Positions 216 through 38,821 of a stretch of DNA of 64,000 nt are shown one piece after another (position 1 is the stretch's first letter; every line of letters starts with the position of its first letter). This stretch comes from Planctomycetota bacterium. GTDB taxonomy: Bacteria; Planctomycetota; B15-G4; JADJEK01. Where the stretch lies: NCBI GenBank assembly GCA_044225365.1, contig JBGAIQ010000013.1:1-64000 (forward strand). The letters are read 5' to 3'. Made by a program: the position numbers and the translations under genes. The notes under the pieces are model-generated. The model was not told where the DNA came from, did no database searches, and saw nothing but the letters and a program-made list of their open reading frames with translations.

Positions 216-3200
216 ATGTCGATGAGTTCGTTCGCATTCCTCGTCGCGTGCTTCCTCGGCCCGGCGACCGTCCCTGACGACACCGCCCGGATCGAAGCGC
301 CGCGCTCGATCGAAGCCTTGCAGCGCAATGGCCTGCGGATCGTGGTGTGCCCGCGCGCGGGCGAGCCGGCCGTCGCATTGCGACTCTGTCTGCGCGCCGG
401 CTTCGGCTTCGAGAATGGCCAAGATCAGAAGGGTGCCGCAGCACTCGTGGCGTGGACATTGCGCTCGGCGCTCGCCGGACTGGAAGCCGAGGGCGGCAAG
501 GTCTCGGTCGCGGTCGATCTCGAGCATGCCGACCTCGCGCTGCTCGTCCCCAAGGCGTCGTTCGAGAAAACGGCGAAGCAGCTCGCCGACGCGGTGATCG
601 GATGCGCGTTCAAGGACGAGGACATCGCGCGGGGCAAGAAGGCGCTCGCGGAGGATCGAGCAAACGTCGCGGGCGGTGATGCGGTCGCGGTCGCGACGGC
701 GCTCGCCGAGGAACTCGCGTTCTCGCGCGTCGTGGCGATGCGCGCTCCGACGCGCCAGGCCGCGAGTGCGGTCTCGAACGATGCCGTGCGTGCGTTCGCG
801 AAGTCGTTCGTTCGGCCCTCGAACGCCGTGCTGGTCGTGGCGGGGGACGTCGATCCGGGCGATGCACAGAATCGACTGCGTGAGGTGTTTGCAGCCTGGC
901 CGCGCCAGCCCCAGCCCGCCGTCGATTTGCCCCTCGAGCCCGACGCGACCGCGACGCGCCGCGGAACCGCCGAGGTCGAGCACGGTGCTGGACTCGCCTA
1001 TCTCTTCCGTACGCCGGACAAGGATCACGCCGACGCCGCCGCGGTCGCCGTGTTCGCCGAGATGCTCGCACGCCGGATGGGCGCGCGATCCGGCGACTCC
1101 GCCGTCGTGACGCGCACTTCGACGATCGGCGGAGCGTACACGCTTGCGACGCAGAAGACGGAATTCGACGCGGTGGCGTCCCGCAAGGAATTCGAGGATG
1201 GGCTCACGAACTTCGTCGCCTCGCTCGGGGGCGAGGGCGCGAGCCTCCCCGCGGAACTTTCGGCCGCACGCGAATCGGCACGGAGCGTCGTCCTCGGGCG
1301 CATCGCGGCCGATCTCTCCACCGTCGATCGCCTCGCGGCTCGCTTCGCGCACGACTTGTCGGACCTCGACGATTGGCGCGGCGTGGAGCGCGAATTCGCG
1401 GCGATCTCGAAGGTGAGCGACCTCGATCTCCGACGCGTCGCGAAGCGCTACTTCGATCCCTCGCGCGCCGCGATCGGCGCGACCGGCCCGGTGCAGCGCG
1501 GCGCGTTCGCCACGATCTCCGGCGTCGAGCAGAAGGACTTGCCGCGAGGCGTGACGATTCTCGTCGACCCCGATCCGGGTACCAACTTCGTTTCGGTTGC
1601 CCTGCGAGCCGATGTCTCGGCGGCGAGGGCGAGTGAACCGCGAGTTGCGAACACCCTCGTCGCGGAAGTGTTGAGGCGCTCGGCGCTGCTCGCGGGAGCG
1701 ATCGAGGCGACCGCGACCCATCACGAAGTCTCACGCGTCGAGATCGAGTTCAGCGCTCTCGCGACGAACATCGACCGAATCCTCGATCGCACACTCGGCG
1801 TCCTTCGCGGCGAGGCCGTGGACCCGAAGGTGATCGAGGAAGCCGATGGCGCCGCCGCGGAGTTGCGTCGCGGGCGATTCGACGAGAACGCCCGTATCGT
1901 TCTCACCGCGATGGGGATGACGGAAGAAGCGGTCGTCGTTCCGGCCGCCGTCGGTCTCGATCGCGCGCGTGCCCTCCTAGAGCGACTGAAGGATCGAGGC
2001 GACTCCTCGCTTCGAATCGCCGCGCGGGGCGACATCACGCTCGCGGCCATCGAGAAGCACTTCGGATCGGCGGTTTCCGAGTCGTCGCAACCGCTCGTGG
2101 GGTCCGCCGGGGGCGCTGCGAGCGGTTCGCCCCAGCCGTCGAGGCGACGTGGCGACTCCAAGACCGACAAGGCGATCCTGGCTCGGGTGTTTCCGATCGA
2201 TGGCGAATCGCTGCTTGCGCGCTCGTTACGTGGGCTGCCCCGGGCCTCGGTGTTCGTCGATCCAGCATCGATCGCCGGCGGGGGCTCGAACCAGGATCTC
2301 TTGAACCATGTCACGATCGACGTGATCGAGACGAAGGCATGGCTCGCGCCGAACAAGACCTATCTCGTCATCGCGCTGCGAGTCGCTCCGAAGGACGTGT
2401 CGGAGGGCGATGCGGTCCTCGATGCGACGCTCGATGCTCTTGCGAAGCGCGGCATCTTGGCAGAGGACATTTCTCGCGGCCGGAAGATCGCACAGAGTGA
2501 GGAGTATGAACTCGCGCTGAGGACGGGTCATCGCACGCTCCAATTGCTCGATCACGGCGGCAGTCCACGGAAGGACGATGCGGCGGACCCGGCACGGTCG
2601 ACGCAGGAACTTCGGGCCCTGGTGAGCGGCGAGGCCATCCGCGTCCTCCTCCTCCCGAAGGACGTGCCGACTCCGGAGTCGTACTCCGCACTCGACGATC
2701 CGCGGCCGAAGCTCGGCATCGTGACGGCCCCGGTCGGGATCGTGGCGCCGGCGCACTCCGACGTGAACCCGTGCGATCTCTCGCTCCCGGAGCTCGAAAC
2801 GAGGTTCGGCAAGAACCTGCTCGAGCCGGATCCGGCGCGTCCGAACGGGCTCGGTCCGCCGAAGGGGACGAAAGAGGTCGCGCGCCTGCGGAGATGGTTC
2901 GGCGGCCCGCCCGGTGGCGGACTCTCCGGGATCATCAATACGGATGCGAACGTCACGGACTCGCTCTGCGAGTACGTCGCGCTCGCCCTCGTCACGCGGC
3001 ACAAGAACGATCCGCAGAAATGGGCGCCCGCGATCATCGACTACGCGTCGTGGAGCGACGACAAGCACACGGTCACGTTTCGGATGAAGCCGGGCGTGCA
3101 TTGGCAATTTCCCGCCGTCGACGCGAAGGACCCGAAGTACCAGTGGATCGTCGACCTGTTCGCCGTTCCGAAGAAGCGGCCCGAACTCACCACCGCGGAC

Positions 3201-4505
3201 CTCGCGTTCACGTTCAAGGTGATGACGCATCCCGACGCGTTCTCGAGCGGGCTGCGCGACGCCTATGCGGGCGCGCATTTCGAAGTGCTCGATCGCTACA
3301 CGGCGCGGATGACGTGGGACGAGCCGACGATCTTCACGTTCGTCTACTCGCTCAACTTCCAGACGATCCTCCCGGAGTTCCTGTTCTCGCGCGACGAGTC
3401 CGGCGCGATCGTCCCCGATGCCCTGCTCGGGAAGGCGATGAACGAGCACTGGTACAACTCGCGATTGTGCGGCTACGGCCCGTACGAGTTCGTGCGCATG
3501 GATCCGGGACAATCGATCGTCCTGCGTCGGATGGACGACTTCCCGATCTTCAAGCCCGCGGTGAAGGAGATCGAGTGGCAGATCTGCGGGGGAGAAGCAG
3601 CGACGCAGCGACTCCTCAAGGGCGACCTCGACTGCTCGACGCTCTCGCCGCTCGAGTACAAGACGCTCTACCGCGACGCGAAGGAGAAGGAGGGCGTGCG
3701 TGCCGAGCGCTTCGCGACGAAGCCGTACACGAAGGCCGAGTACTTCTATGTCGGGTGGAACTGTCGACTGCCGATGTTCGCGGACAAGCGAGTGCGACAC
3801 GCACTCGCGCAGGCGATCGATCGCAAGGCGCTCGTCGACAGCGTCTACTACGGCGCCGCGCCGCTCGTGGAAGGGCCGCTCTACGCCGACCATCCGTTCT
3901 TCGACGCGTCGCTGCCGCCCGTGAAGTTCGACCTCGAGGCCGCGTCGCGTGAACTCGATGCCGCGGGCTGGAAGGACTCCGACAACGACGGAATCCTCGA
4001 CAAGAAGTTCGGCGACACGAAGGTCGACTTCCGATTCACGTTCTCGAGCTTCTCCAATGCGCCAGAAGCCGACGCGTTCTGCGCCCTCCTGAAGGACGAT
4101 CTGAAGAAGATCGGCATCGAGGTGAAGATCGCGGTGATGCCGTTCAAGCAACTCCAGGAATCGACGAGGAATCACACCGCTCAGGCCTGGTACGGCATCT
4201 GGGGAACCTCGTACGAACTCGACTTCGGGAAGTTCGAGTCGCAGAACGCCGAGGAAGGATCGAACTACGGCGGGTACAGCAATCCCGAACTCGACGCGCT
4301 CTCGAAGGCGTACGAACACGCATTCGATCTCTCGCAGCGCAAGGAGATCGCACGGAAGATCCAGGCGATCCTGCGCGACGATCCGCCTTACGCGTTCCTC
4401 ATTCGACGCGAGCGGCTCACGGTGTTCCCGAGCCGACTCGGCGGCGTCGACTACAGCCCGGTTCGTCCGCAGCTCCTCTGCCTGTCCTGGTACGAGAAGA
4501 ACTGA
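216..4505 (+). CDS. Exported fusion: two degenerate M16 (insulinase-like) modules + family 5 ABC substrate-binding domain
   Basis: N-terminal hydrophobic signal. NGLRIVV...AG.GFE...KGAAALVAW and LPRGVTILVD resemble M16 starts but lack HxxEH; PSNAVLVVAGDVD and DLRRVAKRYFDP are M16_C-like. The C-terminal ~600 aa has SBP_bac_5 motifs (TVTFRMKPGVHW, GYGPYEF, FADKRVRHALAQAIDR, NYGGYSNPELD). Confidence 0.85.
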   Translation: MSMSSFAFLVACFLGPATVPDDTARIEAPRSIEALQRNGLRIVVCPRAGEPAVALRLCLRAGFGFENGQDQKGAAALVAWTLRSALAGLEAEGGKVSVAVDLEHADLALLVPKASFEKTAKQLADAVIGCAFKDEDIARGKKALAEDRANVAGGDAVAVATALAEELAFSRVVAMRAPTRQAASAVSNDAVRAFAKSFVRPSNAVLVVAGDVDPGDAQNRLREVFAAWPRQPQPAVDLPLEPDATATRRGTAEVEHGAGLAYLFRTPDKDHADAAAVAVFAEMLARRMGARSGDSAVVTRTSTIGGAYTLATQKTEFDAVASRKEFEDGLTNFVASLGGEGASLPAELSAARESARSVVLGRIAADLSTVDRLAARFAHDLSDLDDWRGVEREFAAISKVSDLDLRRVAKRYFDPSRAAIGATGPVQRGAFATISGVEQKDLPRGVTILVDPDPGTNFVSVALRADVSAARASEPRVANTLVAEVLRRSALLAGAIEATATHHEVSRVEIEFSALATNIDRILDRTLGVLRGEAVDPKVIEEADGAAAELRRGRFDENARIVLTAMGMTEEAVVVPAAVGLDRARALLERLKDRGDSSLRIAARGDITLAAIEKHFGSAVSESSQPLVGSAGGAASGSPQPSRRRGDSKTDKAILARVFPIDGESLLARSLRGLPRASVFVDPASIAGGGSNQDLLNHVTIDVIETKAWLAPNKTYLVIALRVAPKDVSEGDAVLDATLDALAKRGILAEDISRGRKIAQSEEYELALRTGHRTLQLLDHGGSPRKDDAADPARSTQELRALVSGEAIRVLLLPKDVPTPESYSALDDPRPKLGIVTAPVGIVAPAHSDVNPCDLSLPELETRFGKNLLEPDPARPNGLGPPKGTKEVARLRRWFGGPPGGGLSGIINTDANVTDSLCEYVALALVTRHKNDPQKWAPAIIDYASWSDDKHTVTFRMKPGVHWQFPAVDAKDPKYQWIVDLFAVPKKRPELTTADLAFTFKVMTHPDAFSSGLRDAYAGAHFEVLDRYTARMTWDEPTIFTFVYSLNFQTILPEFLFSRDESGAIVPDALLGKAMNEHWYNSRLCGYGPYEFVRMDPGQSIVLRRMDDFPIFKPAVKEIEWQICGGEAATQRLLKGDLDCSTLSPLEYKTLYRDAKEKEGVRAERFATKPYTKAEYFYVGWNCRLPMFADKRVRHALAQAIDRKALVDSVYYGAAPLVEGPLYADHPFFDASLPPVKFDLEAASRELDAAGWKDSDNDGILDKKFGDTKVDFRFTFSSFSNAPEADAFCALLKDDLKKIGIEVKIAVMPFKQLQESTRNHTAQAWYGIWGTSYELDFGKFESQNAEEGSNYGGYSNPELDALSKAYEHAFDLSQRKEIARKIQAILRDDPPYAFLIRRERLTVFPSRLGGVDYSPVRPQLLCLSWYEKN

Positions 4506-9126: not shown

Positions 9127-9276
9127 TTCCCGCGATTTCACCCATCCAAGGGGGCTCTCGTTCCGTATCCGCCTTCGTCGGCCGCCGTTCGAAGCGGTGG
9201 ACCGGGCCGCATCAATCCGTATCATGCGGCCGTTCGCTGTGTGACTCGATGTCCACCCCATGAAGGAGTGAAGAAC

Positions 9277-9672
9277 GTGAAGAACGAGAATGCCCGCTCA
9301 TCCGGTACGAACCGCCGTGACTTCAACCGACTGATCGCGCTCGCGGTCGGCGGCACGATCCTCGGCGCGACGGCCGGCTGCCAGGGTTCGAAGAGCGCTC
9401 CGGCGCAGGCGGAGATGGCGACGGGCAAGCACGCCTGCAAGGGCATGAACACCTGCAAGGGTCAGGGCGGCTGCAAGTCCGACTCGAACTCCTGCAAGGG
9501 CATGAACGACTGCAAGGGTAAGGGTGGCTGCGCCACGGCGGAGAAGCACGGCTGCAAGGGCAGTAACGAGTGCAAGGGCCAGGGCGGCTGCAAGACGGGC
9601 AACAACGGCTGCGCCGGCAAGAACGACTGCAAGGGCAAGGGCGGTTGCGCGGTCCCCGTCGCCAAGCACTGA
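9277..9672 (+). CDS. Cys-rich RiPP precursor, bufferin BufA2-like, with Tat signal and lipobox
   Basis: AAGGAG RBS then GTG at 9277. NRRDFN twin-arginine motif, hydrophobic stretch, TAG-C lipobox, then four C-[KA]-G-x-N-x-C-K-G-x-G-G-C units. Lies directly upstream of DUF692. Confidence 0.85.
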   Translation: MKNENARSSGTNRRDFNRLIALAVGGTILGATAGCQGSKSAPAQAEMATGKHACKGMNTCKGQGGCKSDSNSCKGMNDCKGKGGCATAEKHGCKGSNECKGQGGCKTGNNGCAGKNDCKGKGGCAVPVAKH

Positions 9673-9778
9673 TCCTCGTCGATCGAACCCGATCGTGATC
9701 GACGCGAGCGTGGAGCAGAAGTCCACGCTCGCGTCCGATCGTTTTCCGCGGAAGCGCCCAAGGCAGGCCAACACGAGA

Positions 9779-10633
9779 ATGAAGGCAGCGAAGTCCCGCA
9801 ATCGGTTCGGACTGCAAGACCTCGGCATCGGGGTCGGGCTGCGGACCGTTCACTTCGGGCATGTCGTCGAAGAGCGCCCCGCGGTTGACTGGTTCGAGAT
9901 CATTTCCGAGAACTTCATGGGCACGGGCGGTCGCCCGATTTACTTCCTCGATCGCGTGGCCGAGCGCTATCCCATCGCGATGCACGGCGTCTCGCTCTCG
10001 ATCGGCAGCGCCGATCCGGTCGACTTCGAGTATCTGCGGGGATTGAAGGCACTCGCGAAGCGATGCAACGCTGTCTGGCTCGGGGATCACGTCTGCTGGA
10101 CGGGAGTCGCGGGCCGCAACACGCACGATCTCCTGCCCTTGCCCTACGACGAGGCGACGCTCGATCACGTCGTCGCCAAGGTGAAGCGCGTGCAGGACTT
10201 TCTCGAACGGCCGCTCGTCCTCGAGAACCCGTCGACCTACGCGACCTTTCGCCATTCGACGATGTCGGAGCCCGAGTTCATCGCGCGGCTCGCGACGGAA
10301 GCGGATTGCGGGATCCTGCTCGACGTCAACAACGTCTACGTGACGTGCCGGAACCACGGTCTCGATCCGCTCGCCTATCTCGCAAAGATCCCGTTCGACC
10401 GCGTGGTGCAGATCCACCTCGCGGGTCACACCGACAAGGGCACGCACTGCATCGACACCCACATCGGTCCCGTCATCGATCCCGTGTGGGATCTCTACGC
10501 CAAGGTGATGCAGAAGGCGGGGCCGATCGCGACGCTGCTCGAATGGGATGAAGCGATCCCGGCTTTCGGCGTCGTGCACGACGAGGCGCTGAAGGCGGCG
10601 CGGTATCGCGATGCGATGAGCGTGGTGCGATGA
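9779..10633 (+). CDS. Multinuclear non-heme iron oxidative enzyme (MNIO, DUF692; BufB/MbnB family)
   Basis: GIGVGLR, FEIISENF, HGVSLSIGS, DHVCW, DLLPLP, LENPSTY, LLDVNNVYV, IHLAGH, IDTH, LLEWD. Confidence 0.96.
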   Translation: MKAAKSRNRFGLQDLGIGVGLRTVHFGHVVEERPAVDWFEIISENFMGTGGRPIYFLDRVAERYPIAMHGVSLSIGSADPVDFEYLRGLKALAKRCNAVWLGDHVCWTGVAGRNTHDLLPLPYDEATLDHVVAKVKRVQDFLERPLVLENPSTYATFRHSTMSEPEFIARLATEADCGILLDVNNVYVTCRNHGLDPLAYLAKIPFDRVVQIHLAGHTDKGTHCIDTHIGPVIDPVWDLYAKVMQKAGPIATLLEWDEAIPAFGVVHDEALKAARYRDAMSVVR

Positions 10634-11517
10634 AAGGGCGTCGGAAGCAGGCGGCTTCGAATCCGTCGATCGCCCCGCCGATCGGCCTCTCGCAATTTCA
10701 GAACTGGATGCAGGCGATCATTCAGCATCCCCTCGGCCCCGCGGTGGCCGCGAAGAGCGACGCTATGCGCTGGATCGAGCTTCCTTCGAATGACATCGAA
10801 CGAGTGGTGCTCCCGTCGAAAACGCTCACCGGGCTCGAGCGCATCTCGATCTACGCGGAGATGTACGCCGCACGACTCGTGGATTGCCTGCAGAACGACT
10901 TCCCTGCGCTCGCTCACGCACTCGGCGCCGACGCTCACCCGTTCTTCCATCGCTTCGTCGCCGCGCGACCCTCGACGAGCTGGACGCTGAATCGGCTGGG
11001 TGCCCCGTTGCCGGGCTACCTACGCGAGCATGTTCAGGCCTACGACAACGGCGAGTTCCTCGCCGAACTGGCGACTCTCGAGCGCGCGGTGGAGGAGGCG
11101 TTCGACGCGAGCCGGGCGACGACACTCACGCCGAAGTCACTGCGCTCGATCCCGCCATCGAAGTGGGGGGAGATTCGTTTCGCGTTCTCGCCGGCGTTCT
11201 CCCTTCACGCATTCGCCTACCCGGTGAACCGCTACTACGATTCGTTCCGCAATGCACGTCCGATCGCGATACCCCGCAAGAAATCGACCTGGATCGCGAT
11301 CACACGACCTCAGTATCAAGTCTTCCGCCATCCCCTGTCGCGCCTCCAGCACGCCTTGCTGACGGCGCTGCATGAGGACAGGCTCCACCTCGGCGACGCC
11401 GTCGAACGCCTCGCGAGGAACAAAGACCGCGAAGTCGAGAAAGCGCTCGGATCGATCGGAGACTGGTTCGAGACGTGGACACGCGCGGGGTTCTTCCGGG
11501 CCGCACGCGCATCCTGA
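10630..11517 (+). CDS. MNIO partner protein (DUF2063, BufC/HvfC-like)
   Basis: ERISIYAEMYAARLVDCLQNDFP and LAELATLE motifs. ATGA-coupled to DUF692. Confidence 0.85.
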   Translation: MKGRRKQAASNPSIAPPIGLSQFQNWMQAIIQHPLGPAVAAKSDAMRWIELPSNDIERVVLPSKTLTGLERISIYAEMYAARLVDCLQNDFPALAHALGADAHPFFHRFVAARPSTSWTLNRLGAPLPGYLREHVQAYDNGEFLAELATLERAVEEAFDASRATTLTPKSLRSIPPSKWGEIRFAFSPAFSLHAFAYPVNRYYDSFRNARPIAIPRKKSTWIAITRPQYQVFRHPLSRLQHALLTALHEDRLHLGDAVERLARNKDREVEKALGSIGDWFETWTRAGFFRAARAS

Positions 11518-12370: not shown

Positions 12371-14398
12371 GTGCGCCGGGCAAAGCTCGGGCAAGGAGGA
12401 TCGAGACATGTAATCGTGAAACCTTGCATTGGATCCCCGCGGGTCGCAGCCCGCCCGGCATTAGAGGGTCGCTGGCCGGAACCGAGTGATGCGCGAGACG
12501 GAGGCGACTCCGGCCGCGAAGCGTTCACAGGAAGCATGCAGGCCCAGTATGGAGCTCCGAAATGTCCCTCGCGAGAGCCGACATCGTGCCTAGAACTGGA
12601 AGGCCACTGTCACGCATCGAACGACCAACGCGGTGCGTGGTCTCGCCGGAGTCAGAGACCTGGGCATGTAGGCAGGGGGATCCCCGGGAACCCGGGAGAT
12701 CTGACCATCTCCGATCCACTCGCGGTTGGTGGAAGCCGCGTACCAAAATCCAGGCCGAGCGACGCGCGACCCGCCGTCTCGGAACGAAAACAGGCTCGCA
12801 ATCGGTACCGCCGAACGAAGCATTGCGAAGTGAAGCGGGACGGATGGTCAGAAGTCAGAGTGACGCATATGACCGATGAAGCGGGGGAATCGAACCCGAG
12901 AGACCCCGTGGAGGAAAGGCGGCACCGGGATCAGGCAGCGGCGAACGGCAACACGAACGGAACACCGAGTCCGCAAAGCGTGTCTACGAAACTTCGCCGC
13001 ATCGCGGAGTTGGCGAGGCAAGTGCGTGGGGTGGCGCTCACGACCCTGTCGCACCATATCGACGTGGAGTTTCTGAAGCGTGCAGTGGATCAAACTCGCC
13101 GCGATGGCGCGGTGGGTGTCGACAAGATGACGGCCGACGAATACGAGAAGGACCTTTCGTCCAACTTGGAGTCGTTGCTCGGCCGATTCAAGACCGGCAC
13201 CTACTTCGCACCACCGGTGCGGCGAACACTGATCCCGAAGGGCGATGGCAAGAAGACTCGGCCCATCGGCATCCCGACGTACGAGGACAAAATCCTCCAG
13301 CGTGCCTTGCTGATGTTGCTTCAGGCGGTGTACGAGCAGGAGTTTCACGACTTCAGCTACGGCTTCCGCCCGAGTCGTTCGGCCCATCAAGCCGCTCAGC
13401 ACGTGCGAAGAGCGATCATGGAGATACGGAGCGGCTGGGTCTTGGAAGTCGATATCCGGAGTTTCTTCGACTCTCTGGATCACGGCCATCTGCGCAGTTT
13501 CCTCGACCAACGGGTCCGAGACGGTGTGCTGCGCCGACAGATCGACAAGTGGTTGAAAGCAGGAGTCCTCGACGATGGTCAGGTGAAGTACCCGACCACG
13601 GGATCGCCTCAGGGCGGCGTGATCTCGCCGCTGCTGGCGAACGTCTATCTCCACCACGTGCTGGACGAATGGTTCGTCAAGACGGTGAAGCCGCTCATGC
13701 GCGGCAAGGTGGAGTTGGTGCGATATGCGGACGACTTCGTCTTCGTGTTCGAACATGAGACGGATGCGCGCCGCATCCTGGCCGTGCTGCCGAAGCGATT
13801 CGGCAAGTACGGCCTCGCGCTGCACCCCGACAAGACCCGGTTGCTGCCGTTTCGTCAGCCGCCCTTTGGCGGTTGGCCTGATACCGGCGACCCAGCCTGG
13901 ACGGGTGCGGCTCATCCGCCGCGGACGTTTGATTTCCTGGGATTCACGTTTGCCTGGACACTCACGCGTCGAGGCGGTCACGCGGTGTTTCTCTACACCG
14001 CGAAGGACCGCCTGCGCCGGACAGTGAAGGGCATTCATCGGTGGCTCCGAGATTCACGCCACTTACCGATCGAAGAGCAGCACGCGACGCTGTGTCAGAA
14101 ACTGCGCGGCCACATGGAGTACTTCGGCGTCACCGGCAACATTCGCCGGCTGCAGGTCGTCGTACGCTGGGCCGAGCGATCCTGGCATCAGTGGCTCAAT
14201 CGCCGCTCGCAGCGCAAGACGATGACGTGGGCACGATTCCATCGAGTCCTCCTGCGGTTCCCATTGCCTCGCGCGGAGATTGTCCACTCGGTCTACCGTC
14301 CCGGCGCGAGCTCCTGATCGCGAAGAGCCGGATGCTGGAAATCGGCACGTCCGGATCTGAGGGGGGCCGGGGCGGAACGCCGCCCTGGTCTACCCGAT
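12371..14398 (+). mobile_element. Group II intron (2028 nt), apparently intact, IEP without endonuclease domain
   Basis: 5' GTGCG at 12371. DIII-like ACCGATGAAGCGGGGGAA...GACCCCGTGGAGGAAAGG at ~12871-12920. Domain V GAGCCGGATGCTGGAAATCGGCACGTCCGGATC at 14325-14357 (AGC triad). Domain VI has a bulged A at 14392 and ends ACCCGAT at 14398. Removing the intron restores a perfect inverted repeat. Confidence 0.93.
12980..14317 (+). CDS. ltrA: Group II intron reverse transcriptase/maturase
   Basis: AVGVD, RPIGIPTYEDKILQRA, SYGFRPSRSAHQA, VDIRSFFD, GSPQGGVISPLLANVYLH, RYADD, FDFLGF and maturase X (LRGHMEYFG). No HNH tail. Probable GTG start at 12980 (VSTKLRRIAELA). Confidence 0.95.
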   Translation: MSTKLRRIAELARQVRGVALTTLSHHIDVEFLKRAVDQTRRDGAVGVDKMTADEYEKDLSSNLESLLGRFKTGTYFAPPVRRTLIPKGDGKKTRPIGIPTYEDKILQRALLMLLQAVYEQEFHDFSYGFRPSRSAHQAAQHVRRAIMEIRSGWVLEVDIRSFFDSLDHGHLRSFLDQRVRDGVLRRQIDKWLKAGVLDDGQVKYPTTGSPQGGVISPLLANVYLHHVLDEWFVKTVKPLMRGKVELVRYADDFVFVFEHETDARRILAVLPKRFGKYGLALHPDKTRLLPFRQPPFGGWPDTGDPAWTGAAHPPRTFDFLGFTFAWTLTRRGGHAVFLYTAKDRLRRTVKGIHRWLRDSRHLPIEEQHATLCQKLRGHMEYFGVTGNIRRLQVVVRWAERSWHQWLNRRSQRKTMTWARFHRVLLRFPLPRAEIVHSVYRPGASS

Positions 14399-31352: not shown

Positions 31353-32990
<1,638 letters not shown>

Positions 32991-34731: not shown

Positions 34732-34904
34732 GCGGGCGCATCGGGACCGACGGCCCGCGCGACAAAAAACACCATCGCACGGAATTTGCGGCGACTGCGA
34801 CGCTATTCTTTCGCGCCATCGAGAGGCAGCGGTCGGGGCGTCCTGGATCTTGGTCGATCCGATCCGATCGCACAGTTCATCGTTCCTGAAGGAACGCATT
34901 TCCC

Positions 34905-36254
34905 ATGGTCACGCGAGGAAGCGGCCCTACGGCCGCGATACCGACCGCCGGCAACACCGACGAGGTGGGGGAGCCGCGCGGAGAAGATCCGGACCCGTCA
35001 TCTACGAACCGCATCGCGCAGCTGAAGCCGGTCGTCCCGGCTGCGCGGGCGGGCCACAAGAAATCGAACGGTTCGACGTCGCTAGCGCTCCCCCGCGCAC
35101 GAGCCCAAGTCTCGTCCGCGGGGTTCGTCGTAGGCGACGCGACCCGCGCCTGGCGCGACCGCTTGTTCCCCGATGTCTCGGATGATGATTGGAACGATTG
35201 GAAGTGGCAGCTTCGCAATCGCACCCGCGGGATGAAGGAACTGCTCCGCCAGATGAACCTGACGGACGACGAGAAGGCCACTGTCGAGCAGCTCGGTGAT
35301 CGCTTGCCGGTCGGCATCACCCCGTACTACATGTCGCGCATGGATCCCTTGGATCCGTCCGACCCGCTGCGGCGAACGATGGTCCCGATCTCCGGCGAGT
35401 TCAAGAACTCGCCCGGCGAACTCGAGGACCCGCTCGGCGAAGATCACGACATGCCGGTCCCGGGTCTCGTCCATCGTTATCCCGATCGCGTGCTCTTCCT
35501 GATCACGAGTTTCTGCGCCACGTACTGTCGCTACTGCACGCGGTCGCGTCTCGTCGGCAAGACAGGCGAGTACCACTTCGGCAACGATCAGTACGAGAAG
35601 GCGATCGACTACATCGCGAGGACACCCGCGATCCGCGACGTCCTGATCTCCGGCGGCGACCCCCTCACGATGCCCGACGAGCGCATCGAGTGGCTCCTGA
35701 AGCGGCTGCGCGCGATCCCGCATGTCGAATTCCTGCGGATCGGCACCAAGGTGCCCGCGGTATTGCCGCAGCGCATTACGCCGGCGCTCACGCGAATGCT
35801 GAAGCGGTATCACCCGCTGTGGATGAGCATCCACGTCATGCATCCGAACGAGCTCACTCCCGAGGTCGGTCAGGCCTGTGCGCGACTCGCCGATGCGGGC
35901 ATCCCGCTCGGCAGTCAGACCGTGCTCGTGAAGGACGTCAACGACGACGTCGACACGATGAAGCGGCTGATGCACGGGCTCCTGCGCTTCCGGGTGCGCC
36001 CGTACTACATCTATCAGGCCGATCCCATCCCGGGATCGAGCCACTTCAAGGTGCCGGTGGAGAAGGGCCTCGAGATCATCGAGGGCCTCCGCGGTCACAC
36101 GACGGGCTACGCGGTGCCGACCTACGTCATCGATGCTCCGGGCGGAGGCGGCAAGATCCCGCTGATGCCGAACTACGTGGTCGGTCGCGACGAAGCGGGA
36201 AACGTGATCTTGCGCAACTACGCGCAGAAGCAGTACACGTACCCCGACGCCTGA
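34905..36254 (+). CDS. kamA: KamA-family radical SAM enzyme (lysine 2,3-aminomutase-like)
   Basis: WNDWKWQL, HRYPDRVL, CATYCRYC, SGGDPL, RIGTK, YIYQAD and DAPGGGGK (PLP Lys). Confidence 0.93.
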   Translation: MVTRGSGPTAAIPTAGNTDEVGEPRGEDPDPSSTNRIAQLKPVVPAARAGHKKSNGSTSLALPRARAQVSSAGFVVGDATRAWRDRLFPDVSDDDWNDWKWQLRNRTRGMKELLRQMNLTDDEKATVEQLGDRLPVGITPYYMSRMDPLDPSDPLRRTMVPISGEFKNSPGELEDPLGEDHDMPVPGLVHRYPDRVLFLITSFCATYCRYCTRSRLVGKTGEYHFGNDQYEKAIDYIARTPAIRDVLISGGDPLTMPDERIEWLLKRLRAIPHVEFLRIGTKVPAVLPQRITPALTRMLKRYHPLWMSIHVMHPNELTPEVGQACARLADAGIPLGSQTVLVKDVNDDVDTMKRLMHGLLRFRVRPYYIYQADPIPGSSHFKVPVEKGLEIIEGLRGHTTGYAVPTYVIDAPGGGGKIPLMPNYVVGRDEAGNVILRNYAQKQYTYPDA

Positions 36255-36306
36255 TCCTCGTTCGAGCCCTGCTTCGCGACGCGGGCGCAGCCTCGTTGGA
36301 AACACC

Positions 36307-37296
36307 ATGCGCGTTGGACTCACCTACGACCTTCGAGATGACTACCTCGCGCTCGGCTTCGACGAGGAGATGGTGGCCGAATGCGATCGACGCGACACGA
36401 TCGATGCCCTCGCGGGCGCGATCGAAGCCGCGGACCACGAAGTCGATCGCATCGGCAACGTCTACGCACTCGTGAAGCGCCTCGCGGCGGGCGATCGTTG
36501 GGATCTCGTCTTCAACATCGCGGAAGGCCTCTACGGATTCGGCCGCGAGTCCGCGATTCCCGCGTTGCTCGACGCCTACCAGATCCCGCAGGTCTTCTCC
36601 GACGCGCTCGTCTGCGCCGTCACATTGCACAAGGCGACCGCGAAGCAGATCCTGCGCGATTCGGGTTTGCCCACTCCCGAGTTCTTCCTCGTGCAGACGA
36701 AAGCGGACATCGCGAGGGTCGATCTCCCGGGCGTGCTCTTCGCCAAACCGGTCGCGGAAGGTACGAGCAAGGGCATCGACGCCAAGGCGCGGATCTCGAA
36801 TCGGCGCGAGCTCGAGGACGTTTGTGAACGGCTCCTCGAGCGCTTCAAGCAACCCGTGCTCGTGGAACGCTTCCTTCCGGGGCGCGAGGTCACGGTCGGC
36901 GTGCTCGGTACCGGCAATGAAGCGCGCGCCGTCGCCACGCTCGAGGTGCTCCTCAAGGCCACCGCCGAACCGATGGTCTACACCTACAAGAACAAGGAAG
37001 AGTGCGAGAAGTACGTCGAGTACCGCATCATCCACGACGAGTTCGCGAAGCGCTGCGAGGACCTCGCGGTGAAGGCGTGGCGCACGCTGAATTGCCGCGA
37101 TGGCGGTCGCGTCGATCTGCGCGCCAACGAAGCGGGCGAGCCGGAGATCCTCGAGCTGAATCCGCTACCGGGAATGCACCCCGAGCATTCGGACCTGCCG
37201 ATCCTGTCGGGCCTTGCCGGGATGAGCTACCCAAAGCTCGTGCGCGAGATCGTCCAGTCCGCGCTCGCACGCGTGAAGCGCCCGCAACCAAGATGA
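36307..37296 (+). CDS. D-Ala-D-Ala-ligase-like ATP-grasp protein 1
   Basis: VFNIAEG, KPVAEGTSKGI, VLVERFLPGRE.TVG, GRVDLR, ELNPLPG. Confidence 0.9.
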   Translation: MRVGLTYDLRDDYLALGFDEEMVAECDRRDTIDALAGAIEAADHEVDRIGNVYALVKRLAAGDRWDLVFNIAEGLYGFGRESAIPALLDAYQIPQVFSDALVCAVTLHKATAKQILRDSGLPTPEFFLVQTKADIARVDLPGVLFAKPVAEGTSKGIDAKARISNRRELEDVCERLLERFKQPVLVERFLPGREVTVGVLGTGNEARAVATLEVLLKATAEPMVYTYKNKEECEKYVEYRIIHDEFAKRCEDLAVKAWRTLNCRDGGRVDLRANEAGEPEILELNPLPGMHPEHSDLPILSGLAGMSYPKLVREIVQSALARVKRPQPR

Positions 37297-38327
37297 CGGC
37301 GGCGAACGCCAAGGGTCTCGTCGTCGTCCTCCTCGAGCGTCTGCCGCCGAACGCGCGCACCGACGAGTCCGATTCGCTCGCGCAGGCGAGCCTCGTCGAG
37401 TCGGCGCTGCGAACGCTCGGCTACGAGACCGCGCGCGTCCACATCGATCTCGATCTCGGCGCGGCGGCGAGTTCGATCACGAGCCTCGCGCCCGACTGCG
37501 TCTTCAATCTCGCCGAGTCCGTCGGACGGACCGGGCGATTCGCGCATCTCCCGACGGGGTTGCTCGAGTCGCTCGGAATCCCCTTCACGGGTAGCCACGA
37601 CGCGGCGATGTACGTGACTTCGAACAAGCCGTTGTTCAAGAAGATGGCGGACCTCCTCGGATTTCCGACTCCGCTCGCGTATTCGATCGAAGAGCTGCGA
37701 GGAGGCGTGGAGGTCGAGGCGGGCGATTACATCGTGAAGTCCGCGTTCGAGGAGGGATCGGTCGGTCTCGACGAAGACTCCGTCGTCACCGTGAAGGACA
37801 CGAAAGAACTCGAGAACGCAATCACGAGTCGCTTGTCTCGGATCGGCGGAGCAGGCTTCGCCGAGCGCTACATCGATGGCCGGGAGTTCAACCTCGGGCT
37901 GCTCTCGAAGCACGGGGGCGTGGTCGCGCTGCCGCCAGCGGAGATCGTTTTCCAGGACTACCCGACCTCGAAGCGAAAGGTCGTCGGATACACGGCGAAG
38001 TGGGATGAATCCTCCTTCGAGTACAAGAACACTCCGCGCACATTCGAATTCGCCAAAGCCGACGAGCGATTGCTGCAGGACATGAAACGGATGGCGACCG
38101 CTTGCTGGGCCGCGTTCGACCTGCGGGGCTACGCTCGCGTCGATTTCCGCGTCGACGCGGCGGGCAGTCCATGGATCCTCGAGATCAATGCGAACCCGTG
38201 TCTCTCCGAGGACGCCGGCTTCATGGCCGCATGCGTGCACATGGGTCTCTCCGTGCGTGATGTCGTCGAACGAATCGTCGATGCCGCGCTCGAACGAGCC
38301 CCGATGCAACGCGAGGTGAGACCGTGA
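37293..38327 (+). CDS. D-Ala-D-Ala-ligase-like ATP-grasp protein 2
   Basis: VFNLAES, PFTGS, IVKSAFEEGSVG, ERYIDGREFN, AKW, YARVDFR, EINANPCLS. ATGA-coupled. Confidence 0.9.
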   Translation: MTAANAKGLVVVLLERLPPNARTDESDSLAQASLVESALRTLGYETARVHIDLDLGAAASSITSLAPDCVFNLAESVGRTGRFAHLPTGLLESLGIPFTGSHDAAMYVTSNKPLFKKMADLLGFPTPLAYSIEELRGGVEVEAGDYIVKSAFEEGSVGLDEDSVVTVKDTKELENAITSRLSRIGGAGFAERYIDGREFNLGLLSKHGGVVALPPAEIVFQDYPTSKRKVVGYTAKWDESSFEYKNTPRTFEFAKADERLLQDMKRMATACWAAFDLRGYARVDFRVDAAGSPWILEINANPCLSEDAGFMAACVHMGLSVRDVVERIVDAALERAPMQREVRP

Positions 38328-38821
38328 CGGGCGAGTCGTGCGACCGCTTCCGAACCGAGCCGCGTCGCAGCGACGCCGTCGCGGTCCACGCGCTCATCGC
38401 CCGCACCGGGTTCTTCAATCCCGAAGAAGTCCGCATCGCGCAGGAACTCGTCGACGAACGACTGGAGCGCGGCGTAGCGAGCGGGTACGAGTTCCTCTTC
38501 GCCGATGACGAGAGCGGGAATCCGATCGGCTACACGTGCTACGGGAAGATCGATGGCACGGCGAGCAGCTACGACCTGTACTGGATCGCGGTGGCCCCGA
38601 GCAGCCAGCGCACGGGCCTGGGGCGCCGACTCCTCGCTGAGAGCGAACGCCTCATCGCACTCCGCGGTGGGCGACGCATCTACGTCGAGACGTCGAGTCG
38701 CGATCAATATCATCCGACTCGCGCGTTCTACGAGCGCTGCGGGTACCGGATGGAAGCCGTGCTGCCCGACTTCTACGCCGATGGCGATGGCAAGGTGATC
38801 TACTGCCGCGAAGTGTTCTGA
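38324..38821 (+). CDS. GNAT family N-acetyltransferase
   Basis: YDLYWIAV.P..QRTGLGRRLL, YVETS, FYERCGY. GTGA-coupled. Confidence 0.92.
   Translation: MTGESCDRFRTEPRRSDAVAVHALIARTGFFNPEEVRIAQELVDERLERGVASGYEFLFADDESGNPIGYTCYGKIDGTASSYDLYWIAVAPSSQRTGLGRRLLAESERLIALRGGRRIYVETSSRDQYHPTRAFYERCGYRMEAVLPDFYADGDGKVIYCREVF

Follow-up and report, generated by a model that had tools for sequence, protein, structure and literature searches.

A widespread operon combining a lysine-type KamA aminomutase, two Ddl-fold ATP-grasp ligases and an acetyltransferase, with a candidate translational pause in its leader

Organization of the operon

The subject of this analysis is a four-gene operon in a 64,000-nucleotide stretch of the genome of a Planctomycetota bacterium (assembly GCA_044225365.1, contig JBGAIQ010000013.1, positions 1 to 64,000), referred to below as the window. 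The operon encodes a KamA-family aminomutase, two ATP-grasp ligases with the fold of D-alanine-D-alanine ligase (Ddl), here called ligase 1 and ligase 2, and an N-acetyltransferase of the GNAT family (Table 1). KamA is separated from ligase 1 by 52 nucleotides, and the two following junctions are overlaps of four bases, ATGA between the ligases and GTGA between ligase 2 and GNAT. An earlier reading of the window, made from the letters alone (the sequence-only reading), had described four co-oriented genes with the last three coupled, and this is the arrangement found. It had also reported no adjacent epmA, efp or lysine-fermentation genes, and none is present in the window's set of 44 called genes. 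An Rfam search gave no match at the operon, and the signal in a scan for sigma-70 promoters and terminators was at chance level.

Table 1. Features of the operon, in window coordinates
Feature	Position	Strand	Remarks
KamA-family radical S-adenosylmethionine (SAM)/pyridoxal phosphate (PLP) aminomutase, lysine-type, short C-terminus	34905..36254	+	449 aa
Variable in-frame N-terminal leader of KamA, ~80 codons	34905..35144	+	Outside the 2a5h alignment; leaders of homologues variable
Acidic/proline motif D19-P31 ending EDPDP, candidate ribosome pause/abort sensor	34959..34997	+	Variant of the acidic-Pro-Pro motif
ATP-grasp ligase 1, Ddl fold, predicted acidic donor and acceptor pockets	36307..37296	+	329 aa; Pfam PF07478
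ATP-grasp ligase 2, Ddl fold, predicted remodelled acceptor pocket	37293..38327	+	344 aa
GNAT N-acetyltransferase, orthologue of PDB 2r7h	38324..38821	+	165 aa; Pfam Acetyltransf_1

Conservation and gene fusions

Scanning GTDB with an alignment of ligase 1 matched at least 600 stretches, of which at least 590 were confirmed, and the best 80 were taken as loci for comparison. Fifty of these, with at least 3.5 kb of upstream and 4.5 kb of downstream sequence, are termed well sampled. The linkage that the sequence-only reading had proposed to check by gene neighbourhood is conserved, the four-gene set being complete in 51 of the 80 loci and in 37 of the 50 well-sampled ones. Taken singly, KamA is present in 68 of the 80 loci, ligase 2 in 69 and GNAT in 57. 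Gene order is almost invariant, with median gaps of 8-15 nucleotides, and the hosts span at least six phyla (Desulfobacterota, Planctomycetota, Bacteroidota, Pseudomonadota, Spirochaetota and Acidobacteriota). Among well-sampled loci ligase 1 occurs without ligase 2 in four, one of which holds KamA and ligase 1 only. Non-orthologous replacement of KamA was considered for two loci (L004 and L010) and none was seen. KamA is split in L021 and L023, and GNAT in L004, through frameshift or assembly error. A YitT-family membrane protein flanks the operon in six loci (L052, L055, L056, L060, L067 and L038), mostly from one Desulfobacterota lineage.

The genes are also found fused. KamA is joined to a Ddl-like ligase in 8 of 30 long proteins scanned from 150 representatives (P0244 is an example), and one such fusion is 54% identical to ligase 1. 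Among 75 long relatives of ligase 2, 53 are fusions of ligase 1 with ligase 2 and two more also carry GNAT; ligase 2 is fused to GNAT in 4 of the 80 loci. Over 51 loci, tree distances correlate with rho 0.62 for KamA and ligase 1, 0.64 for ligase 2 and GNAT, and 0.35 for ligase 1 and ligase 2, and this order of pairing held in 100 of 100 subsamples. As tree distances are not mutually independent the pairing is read as a tendency, and it suggests an operon that tends to consist of two modules, usually joined. The heterodimeric ligase envisaged in the sequence-only reading gains from the 55 of 75 long relatives in which the ligases are fused, yet the low correlation between them and the four loci without ligase 2 mean that an obligate heterodimer does not follow.

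The KamA aminomutase

KamA passes the model of the KamA subfamily (TIGR00238, 368 bits against a cut-off of 199). It falls below the models for AblA (TIGR03820, 473 against 525 bits, covering model positions 3-358 of 417), for the glutamate and arginine 2,3-aminomutases (TIGR04368 and TIGR04468, 418 against 650 and 383 against 600) and for EpmB (264 against 369). It aligns with the lysine 2,3-aminomutase (LAM) of C. subterminale (PDB 2a5h, E 8e-140). LAM residues C125/C129/C132, R134, D293, D330 and K337 correspond to C204/C208/C211, R213, D373, D410 and K417 of the window protein, and all are invariant in the 66 operon KamAs compared, including the two Asp positions that the sequence-only reading had singled out as lysine-binding. 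Lysine-type motifs are likewise present in 119 of 119 KamA homologues from a second protein set. LAM R134, D293 and D330 are the substrate residues, and their invariance makes lysine the likely substrate of KamA.

The sequence-only reading had remarked on loss of the C-terminal Zn-binding Cys cluster. The match to LAM does stop at residue 365, and a CxCxxC motif after the PLP motif is found in none of the 119 homologues. The motif is, however, also absent from three annotated AblA references, so that its loss is nothing special.

In a quick tree 63 operon KamAs form a single clade (SH-aLRT, the Shimodaira-Hasegawa-like approximate likelihood-ratio test, 92) apart from the AblA, BlsG and EpmB references. 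Other KamA lineages are carried by L074, L077 and L079; long branches were flagged for the first two and for several references. The clades mostly track phylum, and the window protein lies in a starred clade of six rows, the other five of which are Planctomycetota. LAM yields (S)-beta-lysine and YjeK/EpmB (R)-beta-lysine, YjeK also being without the C-terminal domain (PMC2821294). The stereochemistry of beta-lysine is not readable from the KamA sequence.

Other contexts of KamA were noted in passing. A CxxCxxCC (YkgJ-like) Fe/Zn-chelating protein, absent from the window, lies upstream of ligase 1 in 6 of the 80 loci, all Planctomycetota (L006 at 9468-10016, L007, L044, L057, L068 and L073), and is fused to KamA in P0280; it is a possible Fe-S or electron partner of KamA. 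KamA homologues also occur in large phages (H61-H74), both uncultured ones of 462-735 kb and Pseudomonas and Vibrio phages of ~200 kb. Five further proteins (P0258, P0322, P0263, P0268 and P0271) comprise a KamA with an intein/homing endonuclease, a single KamA-LD-carboxypeptidase (S66) fusion and KamA-GNAT fusions.

The two ATP-grasp ligases

Ligase 1 and ligase 2 are 29% identical to one another. Both match Dala_Dala_lig_C yet fall below every Ddl/Van cut-off (best 152 and 100 against 243 bits). The model of ligase 1 has a predicted local distance difference test (pLDDT) value of 92.9, its best PDB match being Ddl with a template-modelling (TM) score of 0.76 and 21% identity, and that of ligase 2 has a pLDDT of 95.0 with Ddl again the best match (TM 0.72). 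Matches of the two ligases to Ddl structures lie at TM 0.72-0.79 with 16-27% identity. JGI names them D-alanine-D-alanine ligase, and ESM Atlas gives only generic names of the Ddl family. Out of 8000 candidates, many of them labelled D-Ala-D-Ala ligase, 7979 scored as relatives.

Neither window ligase contains GGxSxE or HGxxGEDG literally, as the sequence-only reading had said. The position of Ddl Glu15 nevertheless corresponds to E25, a residue invariant in ligase 1 (81/81) and kept in 39 of 68 ligase 2 proteins, in alignments whose N-terminal registers differ by 1-2 residues between methods; the literal absence is therefore weaker than it appears. The catalytic set of DdlB (K97, K144, E180, E187, K215, R255, D257, E270 and N272) is kept in both ligases. 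Its ligase 1 equivalents (K109, K147, E187, E194, K230, R268, D270, E283 and N285) are present in 81 of 81 sequences and those of ligase 2 in 65-68 of 68. With nucleotide, metal and oxyanion residues intact, neither ligase is a dead subunit.

The two proteins differ from Ddl in their substrate pockets. In ligase 1, S295 corresponds to Ddl S281, which presumably binds the acceptor carboxylate, and D296 takes the position of Ddl L282; D8, E25, D27, E73 and E81 are invariant acids, and E231 and E234 are nearly invariant. Such pockets would suit basic amino acids on both sides, and ligase 1 likely activates beta-lysine. In ligase 2 Ddl G276/S281/L282 are replaced by C303/A308/G309, and W237, R249 and D307 are conserved. 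Its acceptor may thus differ from that of Ddl and perhaps lacks an alpha-carboxylate. Family cut-offs, motifs and D-Ala pockets together place both ligases outside Ddl at the level of sequence, in agreement with the sequence-only reading, which had taken them not to be ordinary Ddl enzymes. Nineteen of the 75 long relatives (P0449-P0467) are tandem double ATP-grasp proteins with a ligase-2-like acceptor loop first and a ligase-1-like loop second.

The acetyltransferase and its deacetylase partner

GNAT matches PDB 2r7h at E 1.5e-46, the next structure match being at 1.6e-06, and its conserved acids are E35, E41 and D84. The title of 2r7h, a putative D-alanine N-acetyltransferase, seems to follow the Ddl label of the neighbouring genes; a locus-tag search for the organism returned an unrelated phosphatase only. 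BLAST against two annotated AblB references gave no significant similarity (E >= 0.16) and no AblB model matched; GNAT is not AblB.

Clustering of flanking genes revealed an optional fifth gene of 580-600 aa, a GNAT-deacetylase fusion, in 22 of the 80 loci, mostly within the operon and in three loci fused to the operon GNAT. Its top five PDB matches are acetylpolyamine amidohydrolases (APAH; E 3e-75 to 2e-65), and the Zn-deacetylase catalytic motifs are intact in 19-22 of the 22 proteins. It is classed as an APAH-type deacetylase, and differs from APAH in its fusion to an N-terminal GNAT and its place inside a biosynthetic operon. In three loci (L015, L069 and L059) the operon adjoins genes of polyamine synthesis, namely arginine decarboxylase, agmatinase and carboxyspermidine or deoxyhypusine-synthase-like genes. 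This partner, the link to polyamines and the pause motif described below had been overlooked in the sequence-only reading.

The KamA leader

The window KamA has ~80 N-terminal residues beyond 2a5h. The start is supported by the closest homologue, P0124, which begins alike. Across homologues the leader varies in length and sequence. The sequence-only reading had the length of this extension right in calling it a low-complexity stretch of ~80 residues, but it is not mere filler, as it holds a conserved acidic-proline motif. [ED]PP is present in the leaders of 55 of 66 operon KamAs against a mean of 7 and a maximum of 15 in shuffles, and is followed mostly by G, S or D. In the second protein set, reduced from 119 to 110 by omitting nine homologues with short extensions, it occurs in 63 against a shuffle mean of 12. 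Near relatives of the window protein have [ED]P[DE]P (25/110 against 1.5 in shuffles) or [ED]P[DG]G (12/110 against 1.6), and the window motif, EDPDP, is a variant of its clade. Of 633 other genes from these loci, just 7 encode [ED]PP within the first 70 residues, none of them with CCT. It is found in 0 of 11 reference KamAs, whose leaders are short, and is retained by two KamAs outside the operon clade.

In the 53 of 55 cases measured, 3-32 codons (median 12) separate the motif from the closest in-frame ATG. CCT serves as its first Pro codon in 41 of 55, where the usage of each locus predicts 7.5, and in 25 of 32 after close relatives were thinned. Control Pro-Pro pairs from the same operons start with CCT in 8 of 90 cases in ligase 2 and 11 of 81 in the deacetylase. 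This selection of CCT spans genomes of 40-69% GC. The tripeptides EPP, PPG, PPD and PPN cause strong stalling in bacteria (PMC5499558). Translation of CC(C/U)-C is slow and prone to frameshifting, the sequence is usually avoided, and CadC employs codons of this type as a means of control (PMC8129111). Translation is aborted by N-terminal DE/P motifs, among them the EPDP with which MgtL starts, more so at low Mg2+, an effect that fades as protection plateaus at ~30 preceding residues (10.1101/2021.02.02.429294). The KamA leader has, no more than ~30 codons from the start, a motif of the strong XPPX or DE/P kind together with a bias towards a slow codon. Selection of a slow codon inside a stall motif indicates a regulatory pause, and the motif is thus a candidate for one.

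The leader shares with MgtL and with the rare-codon polyproline of CadC an acidic and proline-rich stretch near the start and a rare CCT codon. It differs from MgtL in that the motif belongs to the reading frame of the first enzyme and not to a separate leader open reading frame (ORF). AZIN1 provides a further comparison, being controlled by a polyamine-sensing upstream ORF. At the KamA leader, in contrast to MgtL, CadC and AZIN1, neither a conserved RNA pairing nor an alternative frame was found. RNA structure was rejected because there is no consistent pairing partner (upstream >0.5 in 17 of 55, downstream >0.5 in 12 of 55), and a programmed frameshift into a conserved ORF because the +1 and -1 frames give unrelated peptides with medians of 24 and 16 codons. 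A frameshift that serves only to abort translation is conceivable. The leader may also be a docking motif, which leaves the CCT bias unexplained.

Neighbouring genes and other features of the window

In the window the operon is flanked by a sigma-54 activator, an unassigned protein of 614 aa and an FG-GAP protein on the opposite strand. The last two were rejected as operon partners, as they are not conserved beside the operon in the loci of relatives. The activator is co-oriented and no more than ~2.3 kb upstream (31353-32990), and a co-oriented sigma-54 activator is similarly placed in L008, L009, L011-L013, L047, L073, L075 and L078. Upstream of kamA, sigma-54-like sites occur in 11 of 64 loci against 2.7 expected (strict, 3 against 0.2); the site in the window (34775-34789) has no -24 GG.

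Elsewhere the window contains, all on the forward strand, a group II intron (12446-14398; Rfam RF02005 and RF00029) with a reverse transcriptase ORF (13031-14317; Pfam RVT_1), and a cluster resembling those for peptides made on the ribosome and modified after translation (RiPPs; 9268-11517), in which a 134-aa Cys/Gly/Lys-repeat peptide comes before an MbnB/TglH/ChrH-family enzyme with a DUF2063 partner. A 1429-aa protein (216-4505) consists of an inactive M16 peptidase domain and a peptide-binding solute-binding domain of the ATP-binding cassette (ABC) type, and is followed downstream by an oligopeptide ABC transporter.

Discussion

With gene content, residues and motif statistics as observed, and with all substrates and the product inferred from them, we tentatively propose that the operon directs the cytoplasmic, non-ribosomal synthesis of a small basic beta-lysyl amide, probably polyamine-like and cationic, that is reversibly acetylated and throttled by the leader pause; our confidence in this stops a little short of even. 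An acetylated beta-lysyl amide, as suggested in the sequence-only reading, is retained as the likeliest class of product. KamA, whose family and active-site residues are clear, would convert L-lysine to beta-lysine. Ligase 1 would then activate beta-lysine as an acyl-phosphate and couple it to another basic amino acid, for instance beta-Lys, Lys, Orn or Arg, as indicated by the KamA-ligase 1 fusions, their co-divergence, the carboxylate-binding Ser that is kept and the acidic pockets. Ligase 2, in what is the weakest step, would attach one more amine, in the simplest case a di- or polyamine or some other non-standard acceptor, as suggested by its loss of the Ddl acceptor Ser/Leu. GNAT would acetylate a terminal amine, and the GNAT-deacetylase, where present, would strip the acetyl group, so that acetylation could act as a charge switch or give a storage form of the polyamine-like cation. 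In chemical terms N-epsilon-acetyl-beta-lysine can be regarded as a substituted N-acetylputrescine. Finally, the acidic-Pro(-Pro) pause would slow or abort translation depending on the activity of elongation factor P (EF-P) and the cation supply of the ribosome, throttling KamA and, through coupling, the whole operon.

A number of observations weigh against this proposal. The 80 loci are the best of at least 590, picked by closeness to ligase 1. Among the well-sampled loci KamA is absent within 10 kb in four, which keep ligase 1, ligase 2 and GNAT, GNAT is absent from five in which KamA and the two ligases are present, and three contain ligase 1 by itself. The window itself is without the GNAT-deacetylase partner, and its copy of the motif uses CCG and not the rare CCT. 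L015 and L069 are related, and the adjacency of polyamine genes in 3 of 80 loci therefore probably reflects about two independent events. The pockets were assigned by sequence alignment to E. coli DdlB and from the roles ascribed to its residues, and the conserved Arg249 of ligase 2 could instead bind an acceptor carboxylate. A pause that aborts KamA at low cations has the wrong sign for a pathway supplying cations, unless high product inhibits EF-P.

Among the other explanations, an unlikely one, though the foremost of them, is that the product is a near-neutral, acetylated beta-lysyl di- or tripeptide serving as a compatible solute, which the deacetylase would merely recycle. Lysine 2,3-aminomutase and a GNAT share an operon in AblA/AblB, which makes N-epsilon-acetyl-beta-lysine as an osmolyte (PMC11337218), and KamA with GNAT mirrors this pair. 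GNAT-ligase 2 fusion and co-divergence, the marine or sediment samples named in the record titles of many hosts, and a trehalose-phosphate synthase/phosphatase adjoining kamA in L040 point the same way. N-acetylglutaminylglutamine amide (NAGGN) is an osmolyte made by way of GNAT and ATP-grasp enzymes. The present KamA, in contrast to AblA, belongs to another clade and scores under the AblA cut-off, GNAT is unrelated to AblB and absent from the five loci above, and the operon adds two ATP-grasp ligases and often a deacetylase. There is no conserved solute transporter around the 80 loci, and one trehalose neighbour among them is at chance level.

It is improbable that the target is a protein, with the ligases placing beta-lysine on a Lys side chain, for example in an EpmA-independent modification of EF-P with acetylation and deacetylation, and the leader reporting EF-P activity. 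Such a role would agree with the missing acceptor-carboxylate Ser of ligase 2, with the EF-P-type stall of the leader, and with the lysine-type EF-P, of unknown modification, of basal Planctomycetota (PMC11388002). EpmB shares with the operon KamA its family and the lack of the C-terminal domain (PMC2821294), and the leader adds a link through proline stalling. The operon KamA nevertheless lies far outside the EpmB clade and below the EpmB model, ATP-grasp ligases replace the lysyl-tRNA synthetase paralogue EpmA, and the operon is not linked to efp or epmA. A regular-expression search of six-frame ORFs in the 80 loci and the window region found no EF-P motif in any credible gene and no EpmA motif at all, and no candidate target gene recurs around the loci. 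The operon is also present in Bacteroidota, whose EF-P reportedly works unmodified (PMC12856214), and a stall in the leader of KamA itself would mean positive feedback. Beta-lysylation of a cell-wall or protein target, as offered by the sequence-only reading, finds little support.

Detoxification or storage of excess polyamines or cations by beta-lysylation and acetylation, with a leader that permits translation when cations are abundant, is quite improbable. It has the appeal of the APAH-type partner and of the adjacent polyamine genes. Glutathionylspermidine and spermidine acetyltransferase offer known examples of this logic. Abortion at DE/P motifs at low Mg2+ here has the right sign (10.1101/2021.02.02.429294), and stress from excess cations is already described (PMC12421838). 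Beta-lysine, however, adds amines and does not remove charge, at the cost of SAM-radical chemistry and two ATP.

A secreted, antibiotic-like beta-amino-acid pseudopeptide, protected by acetylation and activated by deacetylation, is very improbable. Feeding of an ATP-dependent amide ligase by an aminomutase is shared with pyrrolysine biosynthesis, where the radical-SAM mutase PylB feeds PylC. It is shared too with blasticidin S, in which an ATP-dependent carboxylate-amine ligase is encoded two genes away from blsG, and with negamycin, for which a KamA supplies beta-lysine (a preprint). Other plasmid KamAs adjoin ATP-grasp genes. The operon differs from all three systems in its lysine-type (not arginine-type) KamA, its two paralogous Ddl-fold ligases, the absence of nucleoside, N-N or tRNA genes and its broad spread, with KamA clades that for the most part match phylum, the pattern of a housekeeping trait. 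Around the 80 loci neither exporter nor tailoring genes are conserved, and ligase 1 had no match at E 1e-30 among 72,556 plasmids. The plasmid pairings seen lie in Thioflavicoccus (L088, 3956-9047) and Sinorhizobium (L086, 3962-6421), one of them with diaminopropionate (SbnA/cyclodeaminase) and diaminobutyrate genes.

A cell-wall role, in which D-Ala-D-Ala or a variant murein dipeptide would be the product of the ligases and D-alanine the substrate of GNAT, as the JGI label, the title of 2r7h, the uniformly Ddl-like nearest folds with their shared ATP/Mg and oxyanion residues, Mur-ligase motifs near L021 and one KamA-LD-carboxypeptidase fusion might suggest, is barely credible given scores below all Ddl/Van cut-offs, low identity to Ddl structures (21-27%), a different N-terminal motif, acidic or remodelled pockets in place of small hydrophobic ones, and cell-wall genes near just 1 of the 80 loci.

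A literature search for this combination of genes found no description, subscription papers being thinly covered so that an earlier mention is possible. The amidoligase survey of Iyer and Aravind from 2009 may mention the neighbourhood. From PMC8836040, PMC13578949 and the EfpL preprint nothing decisive was gained. Neither its product nor its leader control appears to have been described before.

The synthesis of a beta-lysyl amide that we favour would give beta-lysine a third use, besides fermentation or osmolyte synthesis and EF-P. Proteins labelled D-Ala-D-Ala ligase, in their thousands, include a family probably outside cell-wall synthesis, and where kamA is counted as a marker of lysine fermentation or the acetyl-beta-lysine osmolyte, members of this clade may be counted too. 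Existing resources for study of the operon are the complete genome of Desulfosarcina variabilis (L071), the KamA relative P0227 of Engelhardtia mirabilis and the GNAT structure 2r7h. The conserved in-frame pause motif is a candidate new translational sensor. In its most specific form, which we consider doubtful, the proposal is that many environmental bacteria make a beta-lysine-based polyamine surrogate, either a beta-lysyl peptide or a beta-lysyl-polyamine, whose charge is toggled by GNAT and deacetylase and whose synthesis is fed back through an in-frame, rare-codon pause where the first enzyme begins. If true, this pathway would parallel, in bacteria, the way eukaryotes sense polyamines by means of eIF5A-dependent proline stalls.

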